DNA of 58,221 nucleotides, counting the filler, from Sphacelaria rigidula (lineage: Eukaryota), in assembly GCA_964200075.2 (NCBI GenBank). It is 7 parts of 7 records of this genome, joined end to end, with 100 filler letters (N's around TTAATTAATTAA, not from the genome) between each part and the next. Parts side by side here need not be neighbours in the genome. Positions count along the whole stretch, not along the records: positions 8,333 to 16,564 come from CAXNAA020011835.1; 6 more parts are not named here. One strand, given 5' to 3'. Position numbers and translations under genes: made by a program. Each line of letters begins with the position of its first letter. Position 1 is the stretch's first letter. The notes below the pieces were generated by a model. That model was given only the letters and a program-made list of their open reading frames with translations, had not been told where the DNA came from and made no database searches. Shown piece after piece: positions 8,233-50,492 of the stretch.

Positions 8233-8332
8233 NNNNNNNNNNNNNNNNNNNNNNNNNNNNNNNNNNNNNNNNNNNNTTAATTAATTAANNNNNNNNNNNN
8301 NNNNNNNNNNNNNNNNNNNNNNNNNNNNNNNN
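8233..8332. other. Artificial 100-nt contig spacer (N-run, TTAATTAATTAA, N-run); same spacer at 16565-16664, 24897-24996, 33229-33328, 41560-41659 and 49891-49990
   Basis: Six identical spacers with a stop-in-all-frames core; the segments they separate are 8232, 8232, 8232, 8232, 8231, 8231 and 8231 bp (size-sorted). Confidence 0.97.
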
Positions 8333-9340
8333 CCCCGTATTGCCCGATGAAATCATCCGGGTGGCCTGCTCTTCCTACCCTTGCATTATAATCTCCCACT
8401 AACATCACTTATCCTTGCCTTTCATACTCGCGTACATCAGTTGCTATCTCTCCAAACCTCCGCTGTATCTCGTTCACCCTACTCTTCGATTCTGGGGGCA
8501 TGTAGATTTTCCCTACGGAGAAGTCCTTCGTTCCTCGCTCTCCTGGTACCCTTACCCATATGCTCTCGTCGAACTTAGTGTCGTCGATCTCTTTTATACT
8601 GTCACACAGGTATTCCTTGACTGACAATCCTACTCCGCCCGCTCCCCTGCCGTTGGACTTGTGTCCACTTCGCTTTTCCCTTATCCATGGGTATTCTCCA
8701 ACTTTGCATCCTGTTTCCGTCCCCTCTTTCTCCCATGACCCTTCGATTCCAACTATGTCTAGGTCGCGTTCACTTACACATTGCGCTATCTCTATTCTCT
8801 CGTGCTTGTCTGTGGCAAACCCACACACGTTCCACGATCCTCTTCTGGACTTTCTTTCCGAATCATTGTCTGCCTTCCTGTTGCCTACTGTGCTCTCCCC
8901 GTCGCTTTTACTTCTACTTTCCCTTGCTTACTTGTTCTTCCAGAGTCTGGAATGGTTTTTATCTTTTTGCTTCGACCCGCCATGTCTCCTCCCGTTCCCG
9001 TCCGGGGCACTTACCTGTTCCTGCCTCTCTCCCCCTCTGTTCACCCGCGGGCTACGCCCTAGGTTTGTTGCTCAATCAGCTTTGCATACTCTCCGTTGTA
9101 CTCTTGTAACCCATGCCGACACCTTACTTGTCTCTATCCTTGCCCACCCCTTGCTCGCGCTCTGTTTTAGCGTGACTCGGAAGTGCTCTTTCTCCCTCAC
9201 TATATTTTCTCTCGCCAAACAGTATAGTCCAACTCCGTTGCTTTCCCTTCTAGACTCTATTCTCGTCATATCGCTACGACCTCCGAATACCAGCACTGCT
9301 AGTACTCTACCTGTCCCCTCTTAGCTTCTCCACCCGCCCC
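8333..9340 (-). mobile_element. Degenerate LINE (non-LTR retrotransposon) 5' part with APE endonuclease
   Basis: Minus-strand translation GSWNVCG...DLDIVGIEGSW...GAGGVGL...IYMPPES...(stop)...LVGDYNARVG matches the APE motifs WNV-G, E-W, GGV, Y-P and GDFNA; in-frame stop; RT would lie beyond the contig edge. Confidence 0.85.
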
Positions 9341-11829
9341 TCTCTACCGTCTCGCTCTCGATCTCTTTCGAGAGAATCTCCAGCTACTTCGTTTTGAGTG
9401 TATCGGTGGGATGTAGTCAACGTACTGCAACATGCCAATCCTAGTACTTGTTGGGGGTCTGGTGCCTTTTAGTGGGGAGGGAATATTAGATGACGATGGG
9501 CGATTAGATCTTGACTGATTCAGGAGGAGCACAGGTAGAGCCCGTATCTGTTTTTTGCCACTATCTCATTCCGGTTCAACGAGGGGTGGGTCGACCCACT
9601 TCCGTCTATTGCCTTTTTTTGTTACCATAAGAAGTGTTGGAGTCAGCCGCTGTCCAGCCCCCGTGGTGTCTTCTTTTCTATCCTTAGTGGCCGAATATAA
9701 CACACAGGAGAGACGAGGAAATAACAAGATATTTACCTGTCCAGAACAACTTGCCCGAGTATCTGATGCAGGAAGATCTTGTTCTGCTCTGTCGTATATC
9801 TGGATAAAGCATGCAGCATGGAAGTATGCTCCATGTGTTCGCTTGCTCGGTGAAACAAACGGAGCGCACGCTTCACCAGTGAGAGTGACCAACGCACTGC
9901 CGCGCGTCCAAGTATCAATGCTGCAGTGCGTCAAGTAGTTGTTTCATGCTCTTCGGCCTTGCGCTTGCTGCACAGATAGCGTGCGTCGCTCTGTGACTGC
10001 CGTACTGCGTAGTAATATGTTGTATACTCAACACTATACAGCCAGTTTGTGCATTTCCGTTGTATTTCAAGTGATGGCCAGCCCAGCATACACGCGCGGA
10101 CGTCACATAGTACCCCGTCAAGCACAATGTATGTGGCGACGATGTGCAGGATCACCAATGCATCTCATGAACACCACCGATAGCCACGACATGGCACAGC
10201 TTAGCAGCAGATTCATATCATCCCGACGATGAACATTGTGTGCCTTTGGGAACGCAAGCTCTTGTAAAATGTGTCTCATATACTCAGGAATCATGTGTAG
10301 TACAGACGCGCTCGAAACACATGGAGTTGCGACGACCAAATACTTCCTGTCCACGCCACAGCGCAGCTGATGAAGCATTTTCGGACATTACACCGCCGAC
10401 GCACTCACCATCTTCCGCTAGCGGAACTCGGAGTTGCTTCGTCCATCCCGGGTACTCTTGTGGCTGCAATACGTTTGCCGACGATATTCAAGACACTGCC
10501 ACTAATTTGTGCAACCATAAACCCAAGAGGAAGGTAAAAACAAGAAGCTGGCGCGAACCACGCACCCGCAGATGCCTTGGCACGCCCACACGCACCTGCT
10601 GAACCTTTGCCTGCTGGTATCGACAGAGAACCGTGTTTCTGCGGTGCGTGTCGGCGTTGTCGTAGCATATGGTGCCATGTAGACCGAGTGTGCATCGAAA
10701 CGGTGATGATAGATCTTGTCACTGCAATACTCTTGGTTCCAACTCACTGTGCAGTTTCTGTTCCAGTTTTGGTCTCCACCACAGCGGCAAGTCTTTCAAC
10801 TCTCTGAGAGACCCCACCAAGGAGGGGACGCAATCGTTACACGAGTCGGACACTACGAAACCCTTCACAGAGGCTGCAGAGTGATACTGACCGCACAAAG
10901 TCACCTGGGTAAATTTTCGCTCAGCGATTGAGGTCTTGCCACGGCTGATTTGATCGAAAACCTTTCAGCACATCCTTGCTGATGTGAGTTGGATGTCGAT
11001 TTCTATTCAAACCTCGTTTCTTATCGTCATTTGTTCTTCCGGAGTTCGCAACACAGATCAGCAGCTGCTACTCTGTCGCGGCTTGGGGAGCTGTAGCGGC
11101 TTGCAGAGCCCCCGCATTATGCGGTACTTTACACACACATGCGCTTTCTAGTCGTCCCGTCCAGTGTTCAACATCGCCGAGACCCTTCTCCTATGCCATG
11201 TATTATCCGTGCATGTTTGCAGACAGTGTTCAACACAAGAGCTGCCCATCCCTCACCACACGCGCCGATTCTATGCTTACCCACATGCATTGCGTATGTG
11301 ATGCTGGAAGACGATCCCTGAGTCTTTCGGTGATGTTGTCTGGCTCTTCACCTTGCACAACGATTTCTAGCTGACTCGTTCTGTCTGACGATCCAACCCT
11401 GGTCTTCTGTGTTGTTGAATACATGAATGTCAGATAACTTTGATACGGCTGAGCATGCTTTAGCATTGGCGTTGTGCTTCACATGTTTTGTGTAATGACC
11501 GTTGCTCCTATTGTTCTATACTATAACTCAATCCCCTCCCGATCCTTTCCGCAATTGTGTAGAGAACGTCCCATTCCTTGGAATCGTTTTGCGAGTATCT
11601 TCGTAATTTCCGTCGTCAGCTTTTCATGGAGCGTCGTTTGCGTTTGACGGCGGGCAGCTACATTTTCCCCGGGGTATGTGCCGGAGAAGTAACGCCACTT
11701 GTTCTGCGAGGCGTTTCAACTCACTTTCACCCGTGGCTCACGAGATATTTTCTGACCTCTTGATATTTGTGCTTTCGTGAGCAGTTGGTTCTCCACGGAG
11801 CGCGACACGAAGGACCCCGTGATTGACGT

Positions 11830-14215
11830 AGCCACAAAGTTTGCATTACAAAAGGTTGCTCCAAGCCGTCATCTCGCGGTGTACAGGACTACGAGGCGGA
11901 GTTCTGCTCCAGGCACGCCAGGGTGGGAATAATGGAAGTGAACAAGAAGTGCGGCTACGACCGCTGCTCCACGCTTCTGTCGTATGGTGTACCGGGAATC
12001 AAGAAGGCAGACTGCTCCAAGCATGCGATGTCGGGAATGGTGGATGTGGTGCACAAGAAGTGCGCCTACGAGGGCTGCTTGACGAAGCGGTCGTATGGTG
12101 TAGTGGGAAGTAACAAGGCAGAGTTCTGCTCCGAGCATGCAACCGCGGGGATGAAAGATGTGGTGCGCAACAAGTGCGACTACGAGGGCTGCTCCACAAG
12201 GCCGTCGTATGGCGTGGCGGGGAGCAAGAAAGCGGACTTCTGCTCCAAGCACGCGAGATCGGGAATGGTGAATGTGGTAAACAAGAAGTGCGGCTATGAG
12301 GGCTGCTTCACGCATCCGTCGTATGGTGTGGCGGGGAGCAAAAAGGCGGAGTTCTGCTCCACGCATGCGAGGTCGGGCATGGTTGATGTGGTAAACAAGA
12401 AGTGCAGCTACGAGGCCTGCTCTACAAGGCCGTTTTATGGTGTAGCGGGGAGTAACAGGGCCGAGTTCTGCTCCAAGCATGCGAGGTCGGGAATGGTGAA
12501 TGTGGTGAAAAAGAAGTGCAGCCACGAGGGGTGTTCGACGAAGCCGTCGTATGATGTAGCCGGAAGTAAAAGGGCGGAGTTCTGCTCCAAGCATGCGAGG
12601 GCGGGAATGGTGAATGTGGTAAACAAGAGGTGCGGCTACGAAGGCTGCATCATGCACCCGTCGTATGGTGTGGCGGGGAGCAAAAAGGCAGAGTTCTGCT
12701 CCAAGCATGCGAGGGCGGGAATGGTAAATGTGGTGAACAAGAGGTGCGGCTACGAAGGCTGCATCATGCACCCGTCGTATGGTGTGGCGGGGAGCAAAAA
12801 AGCGGAGTTCTGCTCCAAGCATGCGAAGTCGGGAATGGTGGATGTCGTGAAGAAGAAGTGCGAGTACGAGGGCTGCTGTACGAAAGCGTTCTATGGAGTA
12901 GCGGGAAGTAAAAGGGCCGAGTTCTGCTCCAAGCATGCGAGGTCGGGAATGGTGGATGTGGTGAACAAGAATTGCGGCTACGAGGGCTGCTCCAGGCAAC
13001 CGTCGTATGGTGTAGCGGGAAGTAAAAGTGCTGAGTTCTGCTCCAAGCATGCGAGGTCGGGAATGGTGGATGTGGTGAACAAGAAGTGCGGCTACGTGGG
13101 TTGCTCCACGCTTCCGTCGTATGGTGTAGCGGGAAGTAACAAGGCCGAGTTCTGCTCCAAGCATACGAGGTCGCGAATGGTGGATGTGGTGCACAAGAAG
13201 TGCGGCTACGAGGGCTGCTCGACGAAGCCGTCGTATGGTGTAGCGGGAAGTACAAGGGCCGAGTTTTGCTTCAAGCATGCGAGGTCGGGAATGGTGAATG
13301 TGGTAAACAAGAAGTGCGGCTACGAGGGCTGCTCCAAGCAACCGTCGTACGGTGTAGCGGGAAGTAAAAGTGCTGAGTTCTGCTCCAAGCATGCGAGGTC
13401 GGGAATGGTGAGCGTGGTAAAGAAGAAGTGCGGCTACGAGGGCTGCTCCAAGCAACCGTCGTATAGTGTAGCGGGAAGTAAAAGTGCTGAGTTCTGCTCC
13501 AAGCATGCGAGGTCGGGAATGGTGGATGTGGTGAAGAAGAAGTGCGGCTACGAGGACTGCTGCACAAAGGCGTCCTTTGGTGTAGCGGGAAGCAACAGGG
13601 CCGAGTTCTGCTCCAAGCATGCGAGGTCGGGAATGGTGAATGTGGTGCACAAGAAGTGCGGCTACGAAGGCTGCTCGACGAAGCCGTCGTATGGTGTAGC
13701 GGGAAGAAGGGCCGAGTTTTGCTTCAAGCATGTGAGGGCGGGGCTGGTGGATTTGATAAACACGAAGTGCGGCTACGAAGGTTGCTCCAAGCAGCCGTCG
13801 TATGGTGTAGCGGAAAGTACAAGTGCTGAGTTCTGCTCCAAGCATGCGAGGGCGGGAATGGTGAGTTTGACCAAGAAGAAATGCGGCTACGAGGGCTACT
13901 CCCGGCAGCCGTCGTATGGTGTGGCGGGAAGCAAGACGTTGTGCTCCAATCATGCGAGGTCGGGAATGGTGACTGTGGTGAACGAGAAGTGCAGCTATGA
14001 GGGCTGCTCGACGAAGCCATCATATGGTGTGGCGGGGAGCAAGACGGCGATCTGCTGCCAGCACGCGAGGTCGGGAATGGTGAATGTGGCGAAGAAGGAG
14101 TGCGGGTATGAGGGCTGCTCGACGAAGCCGTCGTATGGTGTGGCCGGAAGCAACAAGGCGGAGTTCTGCTTCAAGCATGCGAGGGCGGGAATATCAAACG
14201 TGGTGAGCGAGAAGT
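11830..14215 (+). repeat. Coding minisatellite, 114-bp unit, about 21 copies
   Basis: GAGTTCTGCTCCAAGCATGCGAGGTCGGGAATGGTG recurs about every 114 nt. Confidence 0.95.
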
Positions 14216-14847
14216 GTCAAGAGGGATGGTTCAAACTGACTGTCGACAAAAGGCACACCGTTGATGAGGCAAAGGTCCGCCGAAAACATACCTCTGCATA
14301 CGATACAGCTGCGGCGCCGGACACCGCGAAGCTTCACATTGGGGAGGGCACCCCCCTCCGTAGCCCAACAAAGGTTGGTGGAGGAAGCGTCGCCGATGTA
14401 CGAGGAACGAAACGCAAGCACCCGGGATTCTCGGGTTCTGTTGCAAACGACGGTGTTGGTGCTCGCCGGAGTGCGTTTGCTGGTCCCAGGCAGGTTGTAA
14501 GAACAAAACGCCTAGCTTCTGGGGCTGGTGAAATGATTTCAGAGGCGAGTGCAGGAGATTGGATGAAGGTAGATGTAGCACTCCGTTCTTCCACACACGG
14601 TGGCGATAGGAGTAGGGAGGGTCGCGAGCAGGCTGCCCGTTCAAGTGGTTGGACCAACGAAGGTCGCCGTAGTAGTGTGATTGGCAGTGACGGCGTGTGT
14701 CCGGGGCGGCTTTGCAGTTCGCCGGCTATGGCACGTGAACACCTGGGCATGTTTTATGTGGACGTTGAAGAGGCAGAGGAGAATCCGAACGTGAAGTTGG
14801 AGCTAGGGGTGTCTAGTCCTTTTCGTCGAGCATACGATACAGTGTAG
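11923..14847 (+). CDS. EsV-1-7 cysteine-rich repeat protein (about 20 tandem 38-aa C-x4-C...C-x2-H repeats, then a low-complexity tail with a basic NLS-like motif)
   Basis: 974-aa ORF; unit KKCGYEGCxxxPSYGVAGSxxAEFCSKHARSGMVDVVN matches the EsV-1-7 motif family. The frame stays open upstream to about 11827 with one more degenerate repeat (CITKGC...FCSRH), so the true start or an upstream exon is uncertain. RGTKRKHP lies in the tail. Confidence 0.88.
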   Translation: MGIMEVNKKCGYDRCSTLLSYGVPGIKKADCSKHAMSGMVDVVHKKCAYEGCLTKRSYGVVGSNKAEFCSEHATAGMKDVVRNKCDYEGCSTRPSYGVAGSKKADFCSKHARSGMVNVVNKKCGYEGCFTHPSYGVAGSKKAEFCSTHARSGMVDVVNKKCSYEACSTRPFYGVAGSNRAEFCSKHARSGMVNVVKKKCSHEGCSTKPSYDVAGSKRAEFCSKHARAGMVNVVNKRCGYEGCIMHPSYGVAGSKKAEFCSKHARAGMVNVVNKRCGYEGCIMHPSYGVAGSKKAEFCSKHAKSGMVDVVKKKCEYEGCCTKAFYGVAGSKRAEFCSKHARSGMVDVVNKNCGYEGCSRQPSYGVAGSKSAEFCSKHARSGMVDVVNKKCGYVGCSTLPSYGVAGSNKAEFCSKHTRSRMVDVVHKKCGYEGCSTKPSYGVAGSTRAEFCFKHARSGMVNVVNKKCGYEGCSKQPSYGVAGSKSAEFCSKHARSGMVSVVKKKCGYEGCSKQPSYSVAGSKSAEFCSKHARSGMVDVVKKKCGYEDCCTKASFGVAGSNRAEFCSKHARSGMVNVVHKKCGYEGCSTKPSYGVAGRRAEFCFKHVRAGLVDLINTKCGYEGCSKQPSYGVAESTSAEFCSKHARAGMVSLTKKKCGYEGYSRQPSYGVAGSKTLCSNHARSGMVTVVNEKCSYEGCSTKPSYGVAGSKTAICCQHARSGMVNVAKKECGYEGCSTKPSYGVAGSNKAEFCFKHARAGISNVVSEKCQEGWFKLTVDKRHTVDEAKVRRKHTSAYDTAAAPDTAKLHIGEGTPLRSPTKVGGGSVADVRGTKRKHPGFSGSVANDGVGARRSAFAGPRQVVRTKRLASGAGEMISEASAGDWMKVDVALRSSTHGGDRSREGREQAARSSGWTNEGRRSSVIGSDGVCPGRLCSSPAMAREHLGMFYVDVEEAEENPNVKLELGVSSPFRRAYDTV

Positions 14848-16958
14848 GTGACACTCAGTGTTGTGCCTAGAGAACGTAAAATCTTTGCGGATGTTCGCGT
14901 ACAAGAGTCATCGTGTAAAATACCAGCGGAGAGCATGCCCAAAGTGTGTGTAATCCGCACAATCGAGGAGTCTGTTGGAAAGGATCTACGGCCCAAGACG
15001 GGGCATATCTGAAAAGGGATGTTTAAGGCTGGATCGTCGGCGCAAGTCACAGGCTGAGAACGTGATGATGTCCCGCTTTCGGTGGTGTGCATGGTGTTGC
15101 TCGGTACGGGTGCGATGCGGGCCCCATGGTACGCCGATACTTGGCGGCCACGATTGGCGTTCCCGCTCATCACCACTGTCAGGGTGTAGTTTAGGGAGTG
15201 TGGAATCCGCCTGAAAAAGAAACATCTCACTAGCTTTCAGCACAAATGAAAACGGCGCAGCTGGCGGCGTTTCAATTTGAAAACTTGTTCTCTACCATTA
15301 TAAAGTGCGATTGAGAGTGTGGTCTTATTCATAACATGTATCGTTCCGCCGGTTCCGATAATGAGACGAACAGTTTACATGTGTGGCATGTTGGAACATT
15401 CCTGCCACCCGTTGCCTGAATGGAATGGCAGAATAATGTTGAAAAATGTTGCGCGCTGGCCCACAGGTCGCATTTGTGGAAAAATACACCGTTCAAGATG
15501 TCTCCAAAGTAGTGTGAGTCGTGCGGGTCGAGTGAAAGATACGATTTAGCCAGGTTGTGCCCGAATTCATTCGCAAATGCAGTTGATGCCACCATTCGTC
15601 GTGTGGACTTGGGACTCATGGATATCTTAAAATCACGTTTCTGTTCAAACATTTCGCCGCAGTTTCCGTCGTTGTTTTTGAAAGCGCAAGTCATCGCGTG
15701 TGATATGACTGTTGATATCCCGCGCCCTTTCGTGCCGAGAAAAGTCGCAAAACGTGGTGGGACCCTGGATTCTGTTCCATGATCTCACCCTCGACGGCAG
15801 CGAATCATAACAAATTCTCTTGCACGAAGCCAATGGAGCGCCTCCCGTCTATGAGCTGCAGCAAATCGATTTTGCCAGGGACTCTCGCCAACCGCATCGG
15901 ATTTCCGAAAATGCACTCGAAGCGTGTGCCGACGGACCCATCAAGAATAGCTCATAAGCCATGAACACGGGAAAACAAATACTACCGGATCAGCAAATTA
16001 GCTGCAAAACACCGGGAGCACTTGGAACTGGCCAACCAAAAACAAAAATCATGCTGTGCTGAACAGCAGTCAACCGTACAACGAACACCGGACGCTGGGT
16101 CTCGGTAGACTCCAAGACCACCGCTCCTGCTCCACCTCTACCCCATCCGTGCTCTCCTCCTTGAGGGACAGTACGTGGCCTACACAAATCGCTGACTCTG
16201 CGCAATTTGATGTCACGCCGAGCGTCGACACTCAAAAGAGATGCGTCTTGCACGTCTTCTGCATGATCCTGCGGTAATGATTGATCGGGGGCAGCGGCGA
16301 AGGGTACGGGTGATCGCGAGAGTTAATGGGGCAGGTTACAGTCGATAGATCGGGCGCTTCAGTACAGCTGGGCGAATTTCAACAACCTCGAATTAGAAAC
16401 TGGCGCAGACAGGACGTCCTTCTGTCCCGTGTGGGGATGATGCTTCCAAACGTATCCATTTACTTGGCACCACGCGAAGACGATACCGACACATTCAACA
16501 CTAGGCGGGTACTCACGATCGAAAAGACTTGGACTCATCATGCCGAGCAGCTGGGCACTCTCGANNNNNNNNNNNNNNNNNNNNNNNNNNNNNNNNNNNN
16601 NNNNNNNNTTAATTAATTAANNNNNNNNNNNNNNNNNNNNNNNNNNNNNNNNNNNNNNNNNNNNAAGATATCTAACTCAAGGATCCATATAAAAGAGGTA
16701 CTTGTACCCGGAATCTCGGGTTAGATTTGTGCTATTATCCGACTACCCGAACCGTCACTAGTTGTCCCGCGAATTTGCTACAGAGTAAAAAACTCACACA
16801 AAATATATACAGTTAGATTGCTGGCTGTGTAAATTTCCAACACATGCGGGGCGACAGCAAGCAACACATTACAACCAACCGTAGGCGGTGAACGCAAAAA
16901 CTACAACACCTCAAGCGGTACAGCAACCGCAAAACAGGGTGACGGAAACCGCAGCGGA

Positions 16959-24896: not shown

Positions 24897-26232
24897 NNNN
24901 NNNNNNNNNNNNNNNNNNNNNNNNNNNNNNNNNNNNNNNNTTAATTAATTAANNNNNNNNNNNNNNNNNNNNNNNNNNNNNNNNNNNNNNNNNNNNTTTT
25001 CGCCGGACTAGGCTCGTACTCAATCACCAAGCGCGAAACGCCGTGGTGTGCTCGGCGAGTCGCATGAAGGGTGAGCTGGATCCGGCTAAAAGCATAATGA
25101 ATATCTTGCATTTGAATGACAACTTACAACGAGTTGCTTTATTTCCTGGTATCGCCGCTTCTAGAGACAGCCACAGCTTATACACTGCCTCATGGATGTC
25201 TCACTATTTAAACACTACGTGGTACGATCATCCCCATCGTGCGGAGTTGAGGTTCTCCCACGCCGCACAACATGATCTAGCTCGCCTACCATCATGGGTC
25301 CCGCAAAAAAAACTCAAGAGCGCAAAACAAACGGTAACCTGGTTGCCTAGCTTACGCAGTGAGTGGCGTGTTTAATAGCGTCATCGCCAACCGACGCCAA
25401 CCCCATCGAGAGTCCGCCCCTACAAAGGCGGGACGGAGCACGCCGGGTTCTCGCCGGACCAGGGGGGGGGGGGGCGAGCTAACTGATGCAAGAAGAAGAG
25501 GACACTTTGATGCGTCGCGGGAGACGGTAATTGGTAAGTGCAGCCGAGTTTTGGTGTCAATGTACCAACCAATACTGCGAAAGGGTGATAATGTTCCCGA
25601 CAAAGAATACACATAAGAGACGTGTGTGTACTTGTACATAGCATAACCCCCAAACCCCCTTGTGAAACAATGCCCACGCACAACCCAAAGTTGGACCCCT
25701 CACGCAGCCTTATATTATGGCATGAATACAAGACCAAAGAGGGAGGACCCATTCAGTGACTGTTACAGTGCCTGTTGCCGGAAATAGCGTTGTCACCAAC
25801 CGCTGCATCGGTGGAAGCCGCGTACAACCGGTGTCTCGGAAGTACCTTCTGACCTCCCGTTGTTGATTCCAAGCGAGACGTGTAGGCTTGAGTTTGTTGA
25901 GACGATATTAAAGTATGCAAATCACCGTGGGCAAACGCCATGGCTAGCTATACAGGGTTAAAAATGTAGACGAAAACACTTTGGTGAAATCGTAGAAACA
26001 GCTGCTATATACTCCTACAAATTGTGCAATGAGCACACTGACAGCAACGCTCCTTTGCTGTGTGACATCTGATTAGTCATGAGCGTAAAAAATATACACA
26101 TTCAACCGTAGCTATCAAATTGTTTGTGGAGATGAACATTTGTAGCTATAACTGTCGAGTTGTTCGTCGACATACAATCACTACTCGTTGTAGACGCACT
26201 CCTTTTCAGTAACCCCCAGCGTCCTCACGTAC

Positions 26233-31984: not shown

Positions 31985-32109
<125 letters not shown>

Positions 32110-33228: not shown

Positions 33229-33840
33229 NNNNNNNNNNNNNNNNNNNNNNNNNNNNNNNNNNNNNNNNNNNNTTAATTAATTAANNNNNNNNNNNNNNNN
33301 NNNNNNNNNNNNNNNNNNNNNNNNNNNNCCTGCTTGCACTGGGTCTGCATATATGTGTGACATCAGTCTCTGATATGTCACTGCAAAGGATATCTCCCAC
33401 AAACAGAGGTATATCCAACTTTGCTCTCGGTTTCTTGGTTTAGTCGCTGGCCCTTTGTTCTCTTTTTTTCAGAGTTTGAGATACAACTATTAATAATTTA
33501 AACATGATTTCGTGGAGTTTTTAATAGATATAACGGTGGTAAATATTTCTCCCCCAACGATTGTGATGCGTTGAACACCAGGTCAACACCCGAATAAAGG
33601 CCTCTTGAAAATGATCAGTTGGACTGTATAATTACACCACGGTAGGTGTAGCCTTGTATACAGGACTATTTCTACCTCACCTGCTGATAGTATGTCCTCA
33701 ATACAGGAGAGTGCATTCGTATCACTGATTCATGTTCAAAAGGTGTAGCTCTGCATGCAGGGCTTTAATATACTATTGCTACCAAGGTACACAGACAGTT
33801 CAACAAATAGCTCTGCATGCAGGATGAACAGTGTTTTAGT

Positions 33841-35961: not shown

Positions 35962-37959
35962 TTACGGCGTTACAGTCCTCGTCACGTCCTGGATCGGCAG
36001 AATGAACACCCTGCCAAACCTTAAATACCGCAGCGAAGCTGGCCATGCCACCTCGTCGATCTCTTGGTTGAAGTTGTCCCCGAAGACCAACTTCTGGAGC
36101 AAGACAGGCCACACTGTACTTTTAATCGGCTGGTTGAAGTTGACACCGAACGTCAACTCCCGTAGCGAGGCAGGCCATGCCACACGCTCAATCGGCTGGT
36201 TGAAGAGGCCCACGAATGTTAACTGCTGCAGCGAGGGAGGCCACATCACATCCTCAATCGGCTGGTTGAACCTCCCCCGGTCCATCAACTCCGTACGCCT
36301 TAACAAATCTTCTACTGGTTCGTGACGGTATTCGCCGAGCGTACGCTGCCGCAGCGAAGCAGACCATGCCACACGCTCGATCGACTTGTTGAAGTTGTCC
36401 CCGAACGTCAACTGCTGCAGCGAGACAGGCCACGCCACACGCTCGATCGACTGGTTGAAGTTGTTCCCGAACGTCAACTGCTGCAGCGAGACAGGCCACG
36501 CCACACGCTCGATCAACTTATTGAAGCTGTTCCCGAACGTCAACTCCTGCAGCGAGACAGGCCACGCCACACGTTCGATCGACTGGTTAAAGTTGTTCCC
36601 GAACGTCAACTGCTGCAGCGAGACAGGCCACGCCACACGCTCGATCGACTTGTTGAAGTTGTTCCCGAACGTCAACTGCTGCAGCGAGACAGGCCACGCC
36701 ACATGCGCGATTGACTGGTTGAACATTCCCCCAAACGTCAACTGCTGCAGCGAGACGGGCCATAGCACACGCTCGATCGACTGGTTAAAGTTGTTCCCGA
36801 ACGTCAACTGCTGCAGCGAGACAGGCCACGACACATGCTTGATCAACCTGTTGAACTTGTTCCCGAACGTCAACTGCTGTAGCGAGACGGGCCACGCCAC
36901 ATGCTCGATCGACTGGTTGAAGCTGGTCCCGAACATCAACTGCTGCAGCGAGACGGGCCACGTTACCCCCTCGATCGGCTGGATGAAGAAGTAGCTCAAC
37001 GCCAAATGGTGCAGCGAGGCAGGCCATGCTACACGCTCGATCGGCTGGTTGAACATCTTACCGAACGCCAGATACTGCAGCGAGGCAGGCCATGCTACAC
37101 GCTCGATCGGCTGGTTAAACGCGTCCCCGAACGTCAGGTGCTGCAGCGAGGCAGGCCATGCTACACCCTCGATCGGCTGGTTGAAGTCGTACCCAAATGT
37201 CAAGTGCTGCAGCGAGGCAGGCCATGCCACACCCTCGATCGGCTGGTTGAAGTAGCCATGAAATGCCAAGTGCTGCAGCGAGGCAGGCCATGCCACACCC
37301 TCGATCGGCTGGTTCAAGTTGCCATGAAATGCCAAGTGCAGCAGCGAGGCAGGCCATGCTACACGCTCGATCGGCTGGTTGAGGTTGGAGTCAAATGCCA
37401 ATAGCCGGAATGGGGCAGACCAGTCCACATTTTTTATCAATTGATCGAAATTACCATATCCAAACGAGCTACGCCCAAACGAGATACGTCTAAGCCGCGT
37501 TGGCCATATCACATCATCAAGATCAGCGTTGAAGTCCCTGTCAAATTCCATAAATTCAACATTGGCCAAAACGTTGGTCTCCCGAGACATGAGCTCGGTA
37601 TCTGCACACGCCATCCATCTAACGCCGCGTGCTCGCAGCGACGGCACTCTGGTCTTATCGACACCGCCATTCATCGGCATCGATAGCTGCTCAGCAGGAG
37701 CCGCCCACAGCCTTCGTGGCGTGTGCCTATCAACTGTCACGCGCAATGTGCTGACGCCGCGGCAAGCTATGCAAAACTTCAGCGACGCCAGCTGCAAGTG
37801 CATCGTGGACATGTATGACCCTCGCTCCGATGAAGCCTCGTTGAGCGCGATGGTGAATGCATCCAGGCACAAACTGCCACCTGAATCAAGAGGGTAGGAA
37901 AGACGATTACCTGGATTGTACGTAAACACTGCCGAGCACGATACTCTCGCTGGGGTCAA
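35962..37959 (-). CDS. FNIP-repeat (LRR-like) protein, about 22 repeats of 22 aa; probably a large terminal exon starting at 37880
   Basis: Unit FNQPIExVAWPxSLQxLTFGxx is the FNIP repeat; the ORF begins at TTG, first ATG at 37812; a polypyrimidine-CAG acceptor precedes 37880. Confidence 0.88.
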   Translation of the reverse strand: MTPARVSCSAVFTYNPGNRLSYPLDSGGSLCLDAFTIALNEASSERGSYMSTMHLQLASLKFCIACRGVSTLRVTVDRHTPRRLWAAPAEQLSMPMNGGVDKTRVPSLRARGVRWMACADTELMSRETNVLANVEFMEFDRDFNADLDDVIWPTRLRRISFGRSSFGYGNFDQLIKNVDWSAPFRLLAFDSNLNQPIERVAWPASLLHLAFHGNLNQPIEGVAWPASLQHLAFHGYFNQPIEGVAWPASLQHLTFGYDFNQPIEGVAWPASLQHLTFGDAFNQPIERVAWPASLQYLAFGKMFNQPIERVAWPASLHHLALSYFFIQPIEGVTWPVSLQQLMFGTSFNQSIEHVAWPVSLQQLTFGNKFNRLIKHVSWPVSLQQLTFGNNFNQSIERVLWPVSLQQLTFGGMFNQSIAHVAWPVSLQQLTFGNNFNKSIERVAWPVSLQQLTFGNNFNQSIERVAWPVSLQELTFGNSFNKLIERVAWPVSLQQLTFGNNFNQSIERVAWPVSLQQLTFGDNFNKSIERVAWSASLRQRTLGEYRHEPVEDLLRRTELMDRGRFNQPIEDVMWPPSLQQLTFVGLFNQPIERVAWPASLRELTFGVNFNQPIKSTVWPVLLQKLVFGDNFNQEIDEVAWPASLRYLRFGRVFILPIQDVTRTVTP

Positions 37960-38641
37960 GATATTTCAAAATCAAAATGGCTGAACATTGACAGGATCGA
38001 ACAGTGTTCAAGGTTGTGTTCTATAGGGTACGGGTATGCTGGGTAGGGTATGGGACTTCATGAACTCACAGAACTGCCGGGTATCGGTATAGAAGTCAAG
38101 TCTTGAAGATTTTACAGAACCTGTCGAGTACCGTGTTGATGCCACACAGAAACCCTCACCCAGGTTAACAGTTAGAATTGATCGTACAGAACTGTCAGGT
38201 ATGGCATGGGAGGCATGCATAATTGACGATCGTCGAGCTGAACTATAAGTGCATGTGTACTTGGATTAATTCGGGTACATGCGGTGCAGATTGATGAAGC
38301 ATCATGGGTATCGGATCGCGTACGTTGACGGATTATGTTATGACCGGGTGTGGGAACAATTGAGGGAACCCATATGCAGTCCTTTCTACCGTAGTCTGTT
38401 GTGTTTTAGGGTGCATTTTGGTCAGTGCGTTTTGGGTTGGAGAGAGCAGCTCGGGTGGGGCGTGCACGGTTGATGTATGGTGAGTGAAGGTTATAAGAGG
38501 TTAATACAAGAAGGTACACACATTCCCCTGCCCAGAGCGCGTCCCCTACGGGATCATCCCTTTATCAAATACGCTAGCGAGTTTGAAACGGGTAGACAGC
38601 AGCCGGAGTAGCAGGGAAGTAAGAGGCGACTTTGAGCAATA

Positions 38642-40560: not shown

Positions 40561-41659
40561 GCATTGATATTGTACCCAACTCTACGCGAACTTCGAGTAG
40601 AGTATCGAGGTCGTGCCCAACTCTACGAAACATGTGAGTAGAGTATTGACGTCATACCCACCCCGAACAAACTTCAAGCGGACTATTGAGGCCATACCCG
40701 AGTGATATTCCACGCCCCGGACCTCCGAAAATACTTACTCGACCATACGTTGGGTAAAGCAACGAGATAATGCTCGGCGCTACCCAAACCTTCGGCAGAG
40801 TAAATACCTGGGTAGTTAGAGGTGTACAACTATTATACCAGACATATCAGTGGTAACTGACATTTCTATCCATGGTTCCGAAGACCCGTATTGGTGCATC
40901 TGCTGACCCTGCACAAAGCATCAACGCTATGGTCGTTGTATGACCTCTTTGAGTTCTCAGAGCTTCACGCTCTAGACACCAAAAACCACATTGGGCAGTA
41001 CCGTCAGAATTACTGTAGGAATGGAGAGGATCGAGAGTAGTTCGATGCGTGAAACCTCTCCGCACTATACTGCCAGTTGCAAACGTCGAAACGAATCTCG
41101 TTGTCGTGTTTCTTTTTTGTTGAGCTCACAGGCCACGTGTTGATACCACACGCTCTATACCTGAGCGACAGTATAGACCGCGCAGTCAAGTGCAATACAG
41201 GAGGGGGCAGAATAGGAAGCACGCACGACATATACGTGAGATGCATGCTCCAGACTACACTGTTTTACACTTGTACAGACGGCATACTGTAGCACTCTGC
41301 ACCACAGTCTACTCGCTGCGCTCCTGTAGCAGTTTTCGGAACGGTGTGCTCTGCGCTGTCCCTCATCTTTTACTCAGCATCAACCCCCCTATTCAAATAC
41401 ACGCAAGAAGGCGATGGGCGATATTCAAATACACGCAAGAAACCGATGGGCGATCTGTGCTGAAAACCGAAATCTGACAAAAATTCAGAGTAACAACAAA
41501 TTGTGCGAATTGAGGTTCAACTCTGAGATGAGGTTCAAGCCTAAAACAGTGCTTTCCCCNNNNNNNNNNNNNNNNNNNNNNNNNNNNNNNNNNNNNNNNN
41601 NNNTTAATTAATTAANNNNNNNNNNNNNNNNNNNNNNNNNNNNNNNNNNNNNNNNNNNN

Positions 41660-44600
41660 TTCGTTCGGAGAAAGGCCTGTGGCGGCATTAACCGAGTTGT
41701 TGTAGGACAACATGATGTGCGAGAGATGTAGGTCCCAGTCATTTTGGCGGTCATTGACAACCATAGAGAGCATCTGGGCCATGGTGGGATTAACTCTTTC
41801 GGTCCCGCCGTTGCCGTTCGGGTGGTGGGCGCTCGTGGCAATTTTTCGGATGCCTAGGAGCTTGTAAAGCTCATCCAAGAGGTCTGAACAAAATTGCTGA
41901 CCATGGTCTGAAAGTAGTCGCTTCGGGCAGCCGTAGTGCTTAAGGTAATCATGGATCAGTATGTCGGCCGTTCCGGCGGCAGTGAAATCTGCGGCGGTTA
42001 CCGCGTACATGGACGCGTGGCGGCTAAAGCGGTCAGTGAAGAGTAAGAGACAGGTGTTGCCGCGACCTGTGGTCGGGAGAGGGCCGAAGTTGTCAAAGGC
42101 CACAAGGTGACCGGGCTCGTCGGGGAGTCCTATAGAGATCACAGGCCAGCGTACTACTGTCTGTCGTGAGGTTTTTCGGGCTTGGCATTTAAAGCATCGC
42201 CGAATCCAGAAGCGGGTTGAGATTTCCATGCCAACCTACCAGTAGAAGCATCCCAAGAGCGCGAGGATGCGGGTGACGTCAAGGTGGCATGACAAGTCTG
42301 TGTGGCAGCCTTTCATGACCCAGGGGCGCATTAATAATGGCACATATATGCGCGCTGTTTCGTCATTGAGTAGTCGTGCGGTGCGTCCCGTAGTTGGGGC
42401 GGCAATTGCGCCTGTCAGGGGCGTGGGCCGACGGACGAGTAGTTGCACGCCTTCATCCGTAGAATGAAGGATGCCTTTACGCACGAGCTCGTATACGTCA
42501 GAAATGACTGGTGGTGGCAGTGTTCCAACCGGGGCCAGAAGTGTGGACGGAAAAGGGACTGCACAGTCAACTTGTAAGTACCGGATGGCTGCGCGACATA
42601 GCTGTTCTACGTGTTGTTCACGAGCCCAATCGCGGTGAGAGTAGCTGGCGAGACACTCGCGTAGCTGACCTTCTGCTGGCGAGCCGACCAAACATGGTAG
42701 GGCAGGTGGCGGGGGAATAGGCGACGGGGCAGAAATGCCAACGTCAATTTCTGTTCCGGGAGCTGGAGACGAGTCGTCAGATCCGTGCTCGGGGGCAGGG
42801 GATGTTTGCGGCGCCATTACAGGCGGCGGGGTTGTATCAGTGCGCGGCGAGGGTGTTTCGCGGCGCGTGGCGCACGGTGCCGAAGGATTTGCGGAGCTTT
42901 GCGTGTTGGTCCGTGGAACTTGTGCTGGGTGGCTGATAGAGGTTAAAGGTGTTGTTGGTGGCGGCGGGGCACTTGGTGTGATGCGGGCGGCAGACCGGGA
43001 GCGCGTGTTGTCGGAGATAAGGTGGGTGACTGGAGGTGTCTCCGCGAAGAGTTTCGCGCGAGCACCGAAAGTGCGAAAGTCGACAAAATCGGAGGTGGTG
43101 GGCTTTAACCCACCCAAGACGGCGTCATATGGTAGAGGGCGAGGTCCTCCCATATGCATACCGGTTTCCGGGCACTGGAGGTCGAGGGCGTAAACGGGCG
43201 TTGAAAAATGTCTGATCGCGTAAATTCCGGGTTCATCGGGTTCCGTTAAACGGCAAGCCGGGCTGGAATCTGCGGCCGTAGGCGGCAAAGGCAGGCGGGA
43301 AAGAAGATCCGCGTTCCCGTTGGTTTTGTCTGCACGGTGCTTAATGGTATACTGTTATGCTGTTAGAAATTACAACCATCGTTATACACGAGAGTTGTGT
43401 TCACCAACCTTGGCGAGTTGTTCGAGTGTTCCGTGATCTATATAGATCTCGAAGGGCACGTGAAACAGATATTGTCGAAGGCGCTTAATGGCCCAAGTGA
43501 TTACTCCGCCTTCCAGTTCTAGCGGGCTCCAATTGGCCTCGTTAGGCAGGGTAGCGCGGCTGATATAAAGGATGGGTCGGACAGAGCCGTCAACCTAAGG
43601 TTGATTCAAAACTCCTCCAAAAGCATTTGTGCTGGTGTCAGTATGGAGTAAGAAATGGCGGGAGCCATCTTGTACTGCCTCCCAATCAGAAAAACAAAGT
43701 ACGGGCTTTTCGGTAAGCGTCTTGAGTATTTCGCGGGTGATAGTCTCCATTTCTGTGGTGAAAGAAAACACGGCTCCTTTCTTGAGTAGCTCAGTAAGGA
43801 GGCGGCGAATCCGTTTCGATGAATTCGGCAAAACATTTCGGTAGTAGGATAGCCCACCCAACAATGAGCGAAGTTGAGAATTTTGGTTGGCATCGGGAAA
43901 TCAGTCATCGCCTTGACTTTGTTTGCATCCGGATGCAGGCCTGTTGGCGAAATGGAATGCCCCAAGAAATCCAAGTCAGTCGCGCCAAGGCGAGCTTTGG
44001 ATGGAGACAGTTTCAAATCGTGCGTACGCAGGCGAAAGAGAAATTCTCGTAGAGTGCGTATATGTGCAATAGGTGAGGCATCGAAAGCGATAGCGTCATC
44101 CAATTACATGATGATGTGCTTGAGGCCCTCGGTGACGCGTTGCATTAAGCGTTGAAAGCATCCCGGGGCAGTGGCGGCGCCTTGTGGCAGGCGAAGCCAC
44201 TCATAGAGTCCGGACGAGGTGCAAAAAGCCGTCAGTGGGACTGTGTCAGGGTGTATAGCATTCTGGAAAAATCCAGAAGCGAAGTCGAAAGTGCTGAATA
44301 TTTCGCCTTCGCCTAAGGAGTCAAAGACTTCAATGCGGGGAATCGGAAGTTTACCGACGACAGTGACGCGGTTCAACCGTTGAAAATTCACGGTGATGCG
44401 TATGTTTCCATCCTTTTTGGGGACGACCACAAGTGGCGAGGCCCAAGGAGAGGAGGAATGTTGGATTGGTCCCGGTCCCAAGTACGCATCCAAGATGGCG
44501 TTAACTTTTTTGGTCAGGATTGGGTTGGTACGGTAGGGCCGAGAAAAGATCGGCGAGACACCGGGTTGGAGGGTAACCTCAAAGAGCAATGTTTTTTAAT

Positions 44601-47600
44601 GCCCAAGATCCGTCTTGGATCGGGAAAATCGGTCTTGGTACTGTAGCAGGGCATCACTGAGTTCTTGGGTGACTGCCGGTTCTCAGCCGGGCCCATGAAG
44701 GTCAAAATTGATGTCGCGCATGTGTGGCGGCAGTTGGTTCCACATGTGCAAGAAACTATTCCGAGATTCTGGTGATAAGCGTTGAAGCACGTCAGCAGGA
44801 GGATCGGAGTTTGACTGGGCAGGATCCACGGTGTGGACCTGGGGTGGGGTAGCAGAGGCGAGATCGAAATAGGGTTCATCGGCACAATGTACTGACTCCG
44901 CCGGAGATGTAGTGTTTAGTGCGGCAGGCTCTGTGACGCACGTCTCGAGTGGGATGTGCATCAGGGGAGCAGCGGCGATTCCTAAAACATCGCTGGGTTC
45001 CAAGTTAGCATGTCCCGTAAGAGGGAAGAGTTGTTGTCCCGCGGACACAAAATGTTCTGTGCCGGCTGGTGCGCCAATGCGGGGTAACATTTCGGCAAGA
45101 TAATGCCCCGTAAGTGCTGGCATGCCATTGCGGCGAACTAGTGCAACTTCACGAAGTTGGGGGTCGTCGGAGAGTCTTATACTCACGCTACCGTTATATC
45201 GTAGGTGGTAAGCAGATCCGGTTGCTTGAGGATTCTTCTGATAAGCCAGGGCGCCGTGGAGAGTACCGAAGTGCTCGAGGTTGAATTCTCCACGCGGCGG
45301 GGAATGTGGCGTTAGTGGTGGAAGCGTGCGGTAGATGCGTGTATTAAACCGCATCTAGCTATCTCTGCCCAATAATATGGCATGAGGCATGGTGCTGTCG
45401 GGGACAACGTATGCCCAGACTGCCAGGCTGGTCGATCGAGTGATGTTGTGAAAGAATTGCACACTGAGACGTACGGATTTACGAGTCGTCAGTGGCGCGG
45501 CCGAGTCACCGAAACCGCCCCACACGCCAGGTTTGGTGGTGGTTTCGCAAGCTGCAGTGGCAGCGCCGGTCTGTTTCATGTGTTTCCATGTTGATTCTCG
45601 AATAAACGTTTGCGGGCTGCCGCTGTCCAACAAGGATACGCATTTCGTAGGCGTGATAGCGTTTGGACCGGCATGGATCGCAACGCGAGTAGTGAAAGTG
45701 GTCGGATCGACAGACACTTTACCGCCGACAAGATCCGGACCGTGTTCCGGCAAGGTAAACTGGTCAGGATCAGCGGGGCTGACAGCAAAAACGCACGGCG
45801 GATGATCCGCCGGTGGGTCAGATGTCTCACCAGAGGAGGGAGTGGGCGGTATATTATTTCCAGGTGTGGCACGGTCATTGGCGATCTCGAAAATGATAGT
45901 CTTTGGTTGACAGGGATCACCGTAAAAGGGGGATCCAGGATGTGCGGGGCTGGAGTCGTCGATTGAAGAAGTAGTGCCGTCAGAATCATGTGATTGTGTT
46001 TCTTCCAGGATACTTGATAAAGCCGTCGAGCTCAAAGTCGTCGCATTTTGGAGAGATTGAGGTTGAGGATTTCCGCTCGAAAGAGGTGTACGTACTGATG
46101 CGCGCGCGTCCTTGGGGGCATGCTTACGGGGCTTTCTCTTTCGCCGTGACAAAGGTCGGGGAAGTTCCAAAACATTTGGGGATGAAACCACAACTGCGTC
46201 CAGTTGCGTCGATGGGATCAGCATCGGGACATGACGGAGCGAAACTTGTGGGCTGCTGTCCGTAGGCAAGTTTGGCTGTTGGGGCATAGCCGAAGATATG
46301 TTGGGGCGGTTGTTGATAAAACCGGCCAAAGGTAGGTCTGCGTCTTGAAAATCGCGGGGAAGGAGCCCGATCCAACTAATTGGGAATTACATGATCCGAT
46401 GTGGTCAGGTTCAAATCAGCAACACTTGGGTCAGCTGAAAAAGGCTTGCTGCTACCTGTGCGTGCGGTCGCTGAGGGAAGCCGTTGCCTCAGGGACTGGC
46501 GGTTGGTCTTCCCACACCTCAGACTTATAGCCGGTACTGAAGGACAAAGTTCAGTGCCGGCTGTAGATCTGAGTCGCGGGGTGACACAACTGTTACGCGG
46601 TGTGTGGAAGGATGGAGACGGGGGTCGATTTGAACGACCGTCAGATGCACTCCTGCATAGTGCCGGAAGAGCCGGGCGGACAATCATAGTCACGGGCTCT
46701 GTGGGCTGTGTTGAAAATTGTTTGGAGGTTTGAGACGGGGTCGATATGAACGGCCGTCAGCTAAGCTCCTGGATAGTGCCGGGGCAGTCGAGTCAGCAAT
46801 ATGTGACACGGACTCCACGGGCTGTGTTGAAAACGTCTTCGCTCGTGCTATCGATGGCGTGGAAGACCGAAGGACACCGGCGTCGGCACGTCATGGATCT
46901 AAGCGATCCGACGTGAAGGTACCAGGGTTTCTGGTGTTGGGATCAGAATTTTGTGTCGGTCCTGTCCGCTGGTGTCTATCAGCGGAACGTTTTTTGTCGC
47001 GAGAACTTTTGATCGTTCCGGCGAGGGTTTCCGTGATTGTTGTTGTGTCGGCGACCGCGATTAGAGCTTTTGTTGCCACGTTGGTTCGAATTGTCGCGGT
47101 AATTTCGAGTTGGTGGACGATAATCGCGCATGCGTTTTTTCCATAGGCGCCACGCGGGTTCATTGTCCTGCAATTCAGGGTTCATGAGATCAAAGGCATT
47201 GATGAATGGACTGTCACAGTCGCGCATGCTGTGACCTTGAACACTACAGTTGATGCAACTGTTGGCATGACTGCTGAAGGCATTGCGTCTAGCGGAAGAC
47301 GAAAGAAGTGGGTTCCACAAATGAGGGTCATCGGTTATGAATGCCGTTGTTGAAGTCAAATTAACATCATCCCAAGTTTCCTCGGAAAACGGCCAACCGT
47401 CAAACTCGCGCTGAATGCATCTCTGGTACTCTGAACATGCATTACTGAACCGGCGACTGAGTCGGGGGTACAGGAAGCGGGAGACAAACTCGAATTCCTG
47501 CCGCGAGCCCCTTCGGCATGAGCGGAGGACACAATCGTAGGTTGTGGACGACAGACGTTGAAGGTTTGCCACGTGTGGCAGGTGTTAGATTACTCTCCTG

Positions 47601-49890: not shown

Positions 49891-50492
49891 NNNNNNNNNN
49901 NNNNNNNNNNNNNNNNNNNNNNNNNNNNNNNNNNTTAATTAATTAANNNNNNNNNNNNNNNNNNNNNNNNNNNNNNNNNNNNNNNNNNNNAAGCGCTGCA
50001 CGAAACTAGAACTAGCGAAGTGCATGGTTTAAGGTTCCTTCCTGTCCTCTGGGGACAAAAAAAAGAGAAATGTTTCCATACTGTGCGCAGTACAACTTTA
50101 ACAGTGTAATATTGTGTCGTTATCCAGAGTGTGTGTGTGTGTGTTTTGCTATTCATGTCCTGACGGAAAATCATATGCTTGGAAGAAAGAAATCCACACG
50201 CATCTGCCCGGCAGCGGATAAGCATACTTCCTACATGATGACTTTTACTTGTACCATTTTAATTTAGACCGATTGGGGGTGCGGGCGATACATGCAAAAC
50301 CTCAGCATGCTGCTGTGATGAACCACCGGACTGCAACCCTCAACACCACCAGAAACACTTTTTTTCTCGGAAAATCGGGGCTGGGAAGAAAAAAGCCCGC
50401 TATTTACGCACACAAACTGAGCAAGAAAGAATCATGGAACGTCGCCATGAGGGCAAAAACAGAACAGTGTTACTGGTACTATAGAAGCCTAC

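Follow-up and report, generated by a model that had tools for sequence, protein, structure and literature searches.

An unusually long EsV-1-7 repeat array in Sphacelaria rigidula and the variation among its modules

The array gene, its modules and its tail

The DNA described here comes from Sphacelaria rigidula (assembly GCA_964200075.2); the whole stretch that was analysed, 58,221 nucleotides with filler included, is referred to as the window. Its part from record CAXNAA020011835.1 (positions 8,333 to 16,564) contains a gene for a long tandem array of EsV-1-7 modules, small cysteine- and histidine-containing units that take their name from gene 7 of the virus EsV-1. A frame of 1006 amino acids extends from stop to stop over positions 11827-14847 of the plus strand, 3,021 nucleotides being free of internal stops. 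The locus is made up as follows.

11782 to 11931, plus strand: probable 5' leader, carrying the relic of the degenerate repeat 1 (positions of TGA and ATG, contig colinearity)
11932 to 14847, plus strand: probable coding sequence in a single exon, 971 amino acids and stop (first ATG, unbroken frame, starts of paralogues)
11950 to 14214, plus strand: twenty tandem EsV-1-7 Cys3His modules of 38 amino acids, repeats 2-21 (PF19114, Tandem Repeats Finder, alignments)
14215 to 14844, plus strand: C-terminal tail of 210 amino acids (residues 797-1006), found in one subfamily only (search for relatives; no Pfam family)

Tandem Repeats Finder reported a repeat at 11894-14192 with a period of 114, 20.3 copies, 82% matches and a score of 2691, and the Pfam family PF19114 (EsV-1-7 motif) matched the protein in 21 stretches with 952.1 bits (cut-off 25, E 2.9e-295). 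The frame contains 21 units of 114 bp or 38 amino acids; repeats 2, 17 and 20 are 37 and repeat 19 is 36 amino acids long. The ligand pattern is C-x4-C-x16-C-x2-H, in which the long spacer is x16 in 16 of the 21 units and x15 in four of them. In the twenty repeats 79 of the 80 zinc-ligand positions are intact, the exception being repeat 19, where a Tyr replaces Cys2. C1, V14, C23 and H26 are invariant across the 20 repeats and another 15 columns are at least 90% conserved. The protein has a pI of 9.37 and a net charge of +74, of which the 20 modules hold +66 (about +3.3 per module), and the G+C fraction at third codon positions (GC3) is 0.74 in the array vs 0.49 in the tail. Judged by its sequence, the array cannot have arisen by chance. 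No other EsV-1-7 units were found within the 58 kb by a six-frame motif scan. A Pfam match to Phe_ZIP and short sequence matches in the PDB (RecA, Phe-zipper, guanylate cyclase), obtained with the array and three alignments, were discarded as spurious, since they arise from the FCSKHA segment. An antisense frame of 716 amino acids (11869-14019, minus strand) has the same periodicity as the array; the simplest view is that the GC3-rich repeat gives rise to it and that no gene is involved.

An in-frame TGA is present at 11824-11826 and the earliest ATG in the array frame at 11932 (context aataATGg), while ATGs farther upstream (11455-11676) open only short frames of 2-54 amino acids. The most degenerate unit, repeat 1 (11842-11916, 64% identity to the array consensus), lies between this TGA and the first ATG and is therefore probably leader sequence that is not translated. 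All 11 paralogue gene models that were inspected begin at the homologous Met of a repeat, an agreement that is partly forced, as this is the sole Met per unit. The gene is probably intronless, and its product of 971 amino acids would consist of 20 modules, one degenerate module and the tail, which ends at 14844. Colinear contigs from two sequencing runs cover 11455-11967 (X1) and 11782-11967 (X2); the labelling of these runs as RNA is a guess, and X1 and X5 resemble one data set. The depth of the X1 and X2 contigs was 21-127 over 11455-11967 and 14544-15415 vs 2.6-5.9 upstream (9439-11332), and the unique contigs of the DNA-like run X8 were flat, with depths of 67-101. Because contig depth cannot rank the parts of a gene, these values give only a hint that the locus is transcribed. 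An annotated protein identical to the array product was not found in the searches for relatives.

The tail contains the following features.

14215 to 14289, plus strand: degenerate last (22nd) module, CQEGW...VRRKH, without Cys2 and Cys3 (tail alignment)
14401 to 14424, plus strand: basic motif RGTKRKHP, resembling a nuclear localization signal (NLS); K79 nearly invariant and R80 invariant in the tail alignment
14563 to 14574, plus strand: MKV[DE] motif, of which K, V and E are nearly invariant in paralogues (tail alignment)
14791 to 14802, plus strand: VKLE motif within the C-terminal NVKLELGV block, K207 nearly invariant (tail alignment)

At the position of the degenerate last module the paralogues retain C-x4-C...C-x2-H. 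Three features of the tail are conserved, namely SVADVRGTKRKR (NLS-like), MKVE(L)AV and the terminal NVKLELGV. The K-R core of the first was retained in 15 of 15 aligned paralogues, and RGTKRKHP may well act as an NLS; the MKV[DE] and VKLE motifs presumably fit the psi-K-x-E consensus of sumoylation. Relatives of the tail fell into 30 representative clusters at E<=0.001, the best of them 68-71% identical and conserved up to the stop codon. Nineteen were looked up, 13 of which were Sphacelaria rigidula, and no other species name was met. Because all 13 named clusters belong to this species, the array gene probably represents a lineage-specific subfamily. The part N-terminal to the tail in these paralogues is at most about 298 residues long, or some eight units or fewer, vs 20 in the array gene. 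At 14360-14391 the contigs of X2, X5 and X8 show four differences that are linked (G>A, C>T, G>A, C>T), which in X8 reach no more than about half of the local depth; their source is a paralogue or else another allele of the tail.

An earlier note on this DNA, made from the letters alone, had described a 20-repeat array resembling zinc fingers of the EsV-1-7 type, and the PF19114 match and the tandem Cys3His pattern bear this out. It had also called the array basic and uninterrupted by introns and had pointed to RGTKRKHP in the tail; the charge, the frame unbroken over 3 kb and the conserved K-R core agree with these statements.

Variation among the repeats

The same note had listed a triplet of residues after the second Cys of each of the 20 repeats and had proposed that this triplet, set in an otherwise nearly invariant scaffold, determines the specificity of a module. 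The list is exact and corresponds to columns 7-9 of repeats 2-21.

11968 to 14127, plus strand: span of the 20 triplets, the first at 11968-11976 and the last at 14119-14127, normally 114 bp apart

As had been noted, the third position of the triplet (column 9) draws on K, R, H, Q and L (K8 Q5 H3 L2 R2). The entropy of the most variable columns, and the minimum number of amino acid changes required on a tree of repeats 2-21 that was built without the triplet codons, were as follows.

Column 2: 1.42 bits, 6 changes
Column 7: 1.46 bits, 5 changes
Column 8: 1.48 bits, 5 changes
Column 9: 2.10 bits, 8 changes
Column 18: 1.49 bits, 6 changes
Column 19: 1.85 bits, 5 changes
Column 33: 1.60 bits, 9 changes
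Column 36: 1.88 bits, 9 changes

Columns 7-9 form the most variable block of three columns (summed entropy 5.04 bits vs 3.92 for the next block) and account for 18 of the 110 changes on the tree, about twice their share of columns. Taken singly, column 9 is the most variable of the array. Because column 7 is mostly Ser (14 of 20 repeats) and column 8 mostly Thr (13 of 20), the triplet comes down in practice to a single residue of strong variability, at column 9, which is one of several such residues in the repeat. The variability of the triplet is real but not unique: columns 2, 18, 19, 33 and 36 vary as much (1.42-1.88 bits), and the description of the remaining scaffold as nearly invariant did not hold.

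The same columns were compared in 25 other members of the family that have at least six canonical units, 175 units altogether. The most variable columns within these proteins were 9, 35, 36, 11, 7 and 19, with column 9 first, and the profile of column variability correlated with that of the array (Spearman 0.51, p 0.001). In 38 canonical units of the paralogues that share the tail, the two highest entropies were those of column 36 (3.27) and column 9 (2.94). These alignments show that column 9, like the linker position 36, varies robustly throughout the family, which fits exposure, a role in contacts, or both.

Substitutions among repeats 2-21 were evaluated by pairwise Nei-Gojobori comparison, which gave the following proportions of non-synonymous (pN) and synonymous (pS) differences and ratios of the corresponding rates (dN/dS).

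Triplet (columns 7-9): pN 0.373, pS 0.546, dN/dS 0.53
Columns 2, 18, 19, 33 and 36: pN 0.315, pS 0.315, dN/dS 1.00
Remaining scaffold: pN 0.091, pS 0.294, dN/dS 0.26

The overall dN/dS among the repeats was 0.39, and the units are under purifying selection. In the triplet pN was 0.373 vs 0.125 elsewhere and pS 0.546 vs 0.297. Replacement change at the triplet is enriched when measured against the scaffold but not when measured against the silent change of the codons concerned; dN/dS is only 0.53 because synonymous change is also raised there. Parsimony counts on the tree gave 12.8 synonymous (S) and 18.2 non-synonymous (N) changes for the triplet; columns 2, 18, 19, 33 and 36 had S 9.5 and N 41.5, and all columns together S 75 and N 125. 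No column showed a significant non-synonymous excess (no P(N>=observed) below 0.1) in this test, which is a rough one with 20 related units, likely gene conversion and few codons. The excess of non-synonymous change at the triplet that the earlier note had taken as the mark of a recognition code was not found, and the claim that the triplet specifically sets specificity meets five other columns that are equally variable and have the higher dN/dS. The reading of the triplet as a code is unproven and the substitution pattern gives it no support.

At the DNA level the units are 70-97% identical to one another. Identity to the array consensus is 92-96% in the central units 11-15 and 81-87% in the edge units, and the indels and the sole loss of a ligand are confined to units 2, 17, 19 and 20 and the relic unit 1. 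This gradient from centre to edge is in line with the minisatellite-like evolution that had been suggested for the array, which by its sequence behaves as coding minisatellites usually do. On the tree built without the triplets the S[KR]Q units 11, 14, 15 and 18 cluster, as do the CTK units 10 and 16; IMH clusters in part, unit 9 joining the FTH unit 5 and unit 8 being placed elsewhere. That triplets follow the genealogy of the repeats in general was rejected, as sharing a triplet does not go with greater similarity in the rest of the repeat (0.842 vs 0.838, permutation p 0.39). Only the derived types S[KR]Q, CTK and, in part, IMH show such tracking, and STK looks like the common state. A higher-order repeat was not convincing (mean identity at offset 4 of 0.844 vs 0.818 for all pairs). 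Contig joints inside the array were considered as length variants and rejected; their sides are 20-26 letters long and the skips are not multiples of 114.

Relatives, predicted structure and possible function

In brown-algal genomes no orthogroup is larger than that of the EsV-1-7 genes, and the family includes the developmental regulator IMM. We know of no ligand or biochemical activity of the EsV-1-7 repeat. The expansion of the family in brown algae, to which the earlier note had referred, is in print and amounts to 2,018 proteins in 31 genomes; the same source also speaks of a possibly new class of zinc finger (10.1101/2024.02.19.579948). Tandem clusters of these genes and a possible function as transcription factors are described in 10.1101/2024.02.19.579948, 10.64898/2026.04.27.720984 and 10.1101/2025.04.25.649966. 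The array agrees with the family (PF19114 / IPR043822; EsV-1 gene 7, Ectocarpus IMMEDIATE UPRIGHT) in motif, 38-amino-acid period and tandem layout. It differs in length from the 12 relatives that were scanned (21 Pfam stretches vs 7-12), and from IMM in having no IMM-specific N-terminal domain, going by the published description of that protein.

AlphaFold2 modelling of units 4-9 (alignment of 73 rows) gave a mean predicted local distance difference test score (pLDDT) of 83.4 and a predicted template modelling score (pTM) of 0.39; in this model the modules are confident and their mutual orientation is not confidently predicted. Each module repeats a strand at columns 12-14, a bridge at 22, a three-residue turn at 24-26 (C-x2-H) and a strand at 31-33. 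Columns 7-9 are modelled as coil right after the C-x4-C knuckle. In BFVD, a collection of predicted viral structures, the model had 29 matches at E<=0.001, including EsV-1-115 and EsV-1-7 of EsV-1, the latter 52% identical across 227 model columns; four of the 29 are named 'Endonuclease' and one 'DNA primase'.

Of 120 length-matched relatives of the array, 83 end in a domain of the form CxxC...CxxC...RPD...hhhEhDExQH...RxNPD, whose invariant residues are RPD...E-x-D-E-x-Q-H...NPD. By sequence this domain was not recognised in Pfam, PHROGs, NCBIfam or the PDB; DUF559 matched two of 46 members (E 0.096). The AlphaFold2 model of a natural short form of 220 amino acids (P0152, 46 rows), a single relative of viral type, had a pLDDT of 88.4 and a pTM of 0.73. 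Compared with 48,161 chains by VIA-align, it was closest to the Vsr endonuclease with DNA (1cw0_A, Z 9.3, rmsd 4.7, 131 aligned), followed by the catalytic domain of the homing endonuclease I-Bth0305I (3r3p_B, Z 8.5, rmsd 3.0, 93 aligned) and further by other folds of the restriction-endonuclease type. The best rows in Foldseek were PD-(D/E)xK nucleases, the top one at E 3.7e-3 (SfsA with DNA). From this model a Vsr-like nuclease fold has moderate support, and it agrees with the EDxHD family as described in PMC3239194.

Fifty-four short proteins contain the nuclease-like domain of the viral-type relatives (P0012 residues 380-574; P0152) either by itself or accompanied by 1-3 repeats, and structure matches in the Atlas, which are leads only, place this domain also behind C2H2 fingers and HA domains. 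A binding module joined to a Vsr-like nuclease looks like a shuffling architecture. One relative of the array (P0038) carries helicase-associated (HA) domains, and a Tc1/mariner transposase of Ectocarpus has an N-terminal EsV-1-7 domain according to PMC12477816. Because related arrays are fused to a nuclease fold, a transposase and HA domains, there is indirect support, by analogy, for EsV-1-7 arrays being nucleic-acid-binding modules. The array itself resembles the giant-virus EsV-1-7 arrays with a Vsr-like nuclease ('EDxHD', I-Bth0305I-type) in sequence (30-47% identity over the array) and in having column 9 among the most variable positions; it differs from these fusions in its NLS-like tail and the lack of a nuclease domain. 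A peptide-pattern scan of a viral contig collection revealed no relative of the array.

With PRDM9 and the KRAB zinc-finger proteins (KRAB-ZFPs) the array shares a one-exon, minisatellite-like layout of zinc modules, short linkers and variation at a few polar positions. In contrast to these, its ligands are arranged as C-x4-C-x16-C-x2-H and not as C2H2 (the array had no zf-C2H2 match in Pfam), its unit measures 38 and not 28 amino acids, dN/dS exceeds 1 at no position of the array, and binding of DNA would be assigned to it by analogy. A long tandem array of 33-38-amino-acid units with a short variable window also recalls the TALE repeats. However, TALE repeats are helical, free of metal and nearly identical outside their repeat-variable diresidue (RVD), whereas the AlphaFold2 model of the array is made up largely of coil and strand and includes a Cys3His site, and the array has eight columns of at least 1.4 bits and consists of units that differ well beyond the triplet. 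The array is neither a TALE nor a C2H2 array and resembles these in layout only. The Zn1 site of the plant SBP domain shares the ligand set of the modules, Cys3His, and presumably has the identical spacing C-x4-C-x16-C-x2-H; unlike the array, the SBP domain contains one more zinc site, interlocked with the first, and forms no tandem array. The Zn1 site is described in PMC11061197 as part of a DNA-binding domain. No match to SBP was obtained by Pfam (E<=10), by PDB sequence profile or among 35 Foldseek rows, searches in which short modules match poorly.

We regard the gene as an intact, intronless and nuclear member of the EsV-1-7 family, ordinary except for its unusual length, whose product most likely binds nucleic acid, probably DNA; on the evidence given we hold this to be about as probable as all else together. 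Each module would presumably hold one zinc through C1, C6, C23 and H26, the modules being joined by linkers of about four residues and followed by the lineage-specific tail with its conserved basic, NLS-like motif. Unequal crossing-over of 114-bp units would have made the array grow and would keep the units similar. Purifying selection would act on the fold of the module, and each module would tolerate variation at some eight polar columns (2, 7-9, 18-19, 33, 36), which may be exposed, and not at a special triplet. Once in the nucleus, to which the tail may direct it, the protein would bind nucleic acid, probably DNA, through many weakly specific modules, each adding contacts, and any specificity would be spread across several variable positions.

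A number of observations weigh against this interpretation. In the papers on EsV-1-7 that were searched no direct evidence of binding of zinc or of nucleic acid was found, and for transcription of the array gene the contig depths give no more than a hint. The pTM of 0.39 for units 4-9 speaks of no regular superhelix suited to a polymer. Comparison of the array model with the PDB by Foldseek gave nothing at E<=0.001 (best E 0.91), and VIA-align found none of the 48,161 chains at Z>=2. The motif RPD...ExDExQH...NPD is absent from the Sphacelaria protein, and its tail matched no Pfam family. As to the fused domain of the relatives, Foldseek produced no match at E<=0.001, and support for the nuclease fold is only moderate because the Z values of the Vsr-like matches barely exceed the background of 7-8 that is stated for VIA-align. 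Finally, small zinc modules such as LIM and B-box often bind proteins.

This last point leads to the alternative that the array does not bind nucleic acid but serves as a scaffold for protein-protein interaction in the way of LIM, B-box or RING-type modules, its variable positions tuning the binding of partners or being simply exposed. The sole solved structures with any similarity to the array model are in accordance with it, being weak Foldseek rows (E 0.9-9, among 35) for the nsp13 zinc-binding domain, a tandem B-box and LIM; the lack of a known ligand leaves room for it as well. Likewise, none of the Ectocarpus EsV-1-7 genes has another Pfam domain according to 10.64898/2026.04.27.720984. 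The net charge of about +3.3 per module argues against such a scaffold, as do the repeated fusion of related arrays to a nuclease fold, the HA domains of P0038, the EsV-1-7 domain of the transposase (PMC12477816) and, as a lead from the Atlas only, the nuclease-like domain behind C2H2 fingers and HA domains; we consider it rather doubtful. On the proposal of the earlier note, each module would read one unit of nucleic acid (or peptide), with the triplet behind Cys2 as a code like that of the RVDs of TALE or of positions -1, 3 and 6 in PRDM9/KZFP fingers, possibly shaped by an arms race with viruses or transposable elements. Columns 7-9 are indeed the most variable block, and column 9, whose residues are mostly of base-contacting types, ranks first in the array and in the 25 family members and second in the 38 paralogue repeats. 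The raised pN of the triplet, the Vsr-like fold behind related arrays and the position of the gene amid high-copy repeats and what looks like a degenerate retroelement (see below) could be counted in its favour too. But columns 33 and 36 have undergone nine independent changes each, vs eight in column 9 and five in columns 7 and 8; pS is raised as well, dN/dS at the triplet is lower than at the other variable columns (1.00), and neither the N and S counts nor any single column reveal an excess. Moreover, the repeats are far from identical outside the triplet (70-97% at the DNA level), unlike TALE, no regular arrangement between modules is predicted, and Ser and Thr prevail at columns 7 and 8. 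A per-repeat recognition code was not found in the papers on EsV-1-7 / PF19114 / IPR043822 that were searched, and we consider this proposal quite unlikely.

Least of all do we believe that the gene is a recent functionless or decaying copy, a coding minisatellite in neutral drift, which we hold to be very improbable. The degenerate edge repeats (repeat 1 untranslated, repeat 19 without Cys2, the 22nd module minus two ligands), the drop of GC3 from array to tail, the location between high-copy repeats and the lack of an annotated identical protein would all suit decay. They are opposed by a frame of 3,021 nucleotides without a stop, 79 of 80 intact ligand positions, a scaffold dN/dS of 0.26 and a tail that is 68-71% identical to its paralogues up to the stop codon. 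A bolder possibility is that EsV-1-7 is a third natural programmable DNA-reading module beside C2H2 and TALE, with which viruses aim nucleases and of which algae have domesticated arrays. Each module would then read a short step of DNA via a few variable polar residues near the zinc knuckle and the linker, at column 9 together with 36, 33, 18/19 and 2, and giant viruses would aim Vsr-like homing nucleases with their arrays. The arrays of brown algae, among them the 20 modules of the Sphacelaria gene with a tail for nuclear targeting, would evolve fast and regulate or repress viruses and transposons; this too seems unlikely to us. Returning to the array as a long family member that binds nucleic acid, it is clean and well conserved and its variable positions are mapped per column, which makes it a convenient substrate for first binding experiments. 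Should the variable positions encode specificity, a new modular recognition system would be at hand; on present evidence it is one more member of the EsV-1-7 family.

Flanks and other features of the window

At 8400-8670 and 15175-16500 the depth of X8 contigs was about 1e5, vs about 75 in unique sequence. This indicates that very high-copy repeats directly flank the array gene. The two flanks share no sequence with each other, and no terminal inverted repeats (TIR), long terminal repeats (LTR) or target duplications were found to flank the gene. Rfam had no match in the window. The region 41612-49942 (minus strand) is filled from end to end by open frames that are broken by single stops, in which motifs were recognised by eye that we take to be those of an integrase (…HHPNGNGGTERVN…), a gag zinc-knuckle (CINCSVQGHSMRDC) and a protease (LLDSGS). 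By these motifs it looks like a degenerate LTR retrotransposon; a Pfam search with four pieces of the region returned no family.

Two further open frames lie on the minus strand. One of 667 amino acids at 35962-37965 contains 12 FNIP repeats (PF05725, E 3.6e-96), for which a tandem array of 66-bp units (36346-37387, 15.8 copies) codes, and one of 552 amino acids at 55541-57199 contains two WW domains (PF00397, E 1.3e-13). Paired runs of 44 N's recur about every 8.33 kb (8233-8332, 16565-16664, 24897-24996, 33229-33328, 41560-41659 and 49891-49990) and look like masking rather than assembly gaps. An (AC)60 microsatellite occupies 31987-32106.

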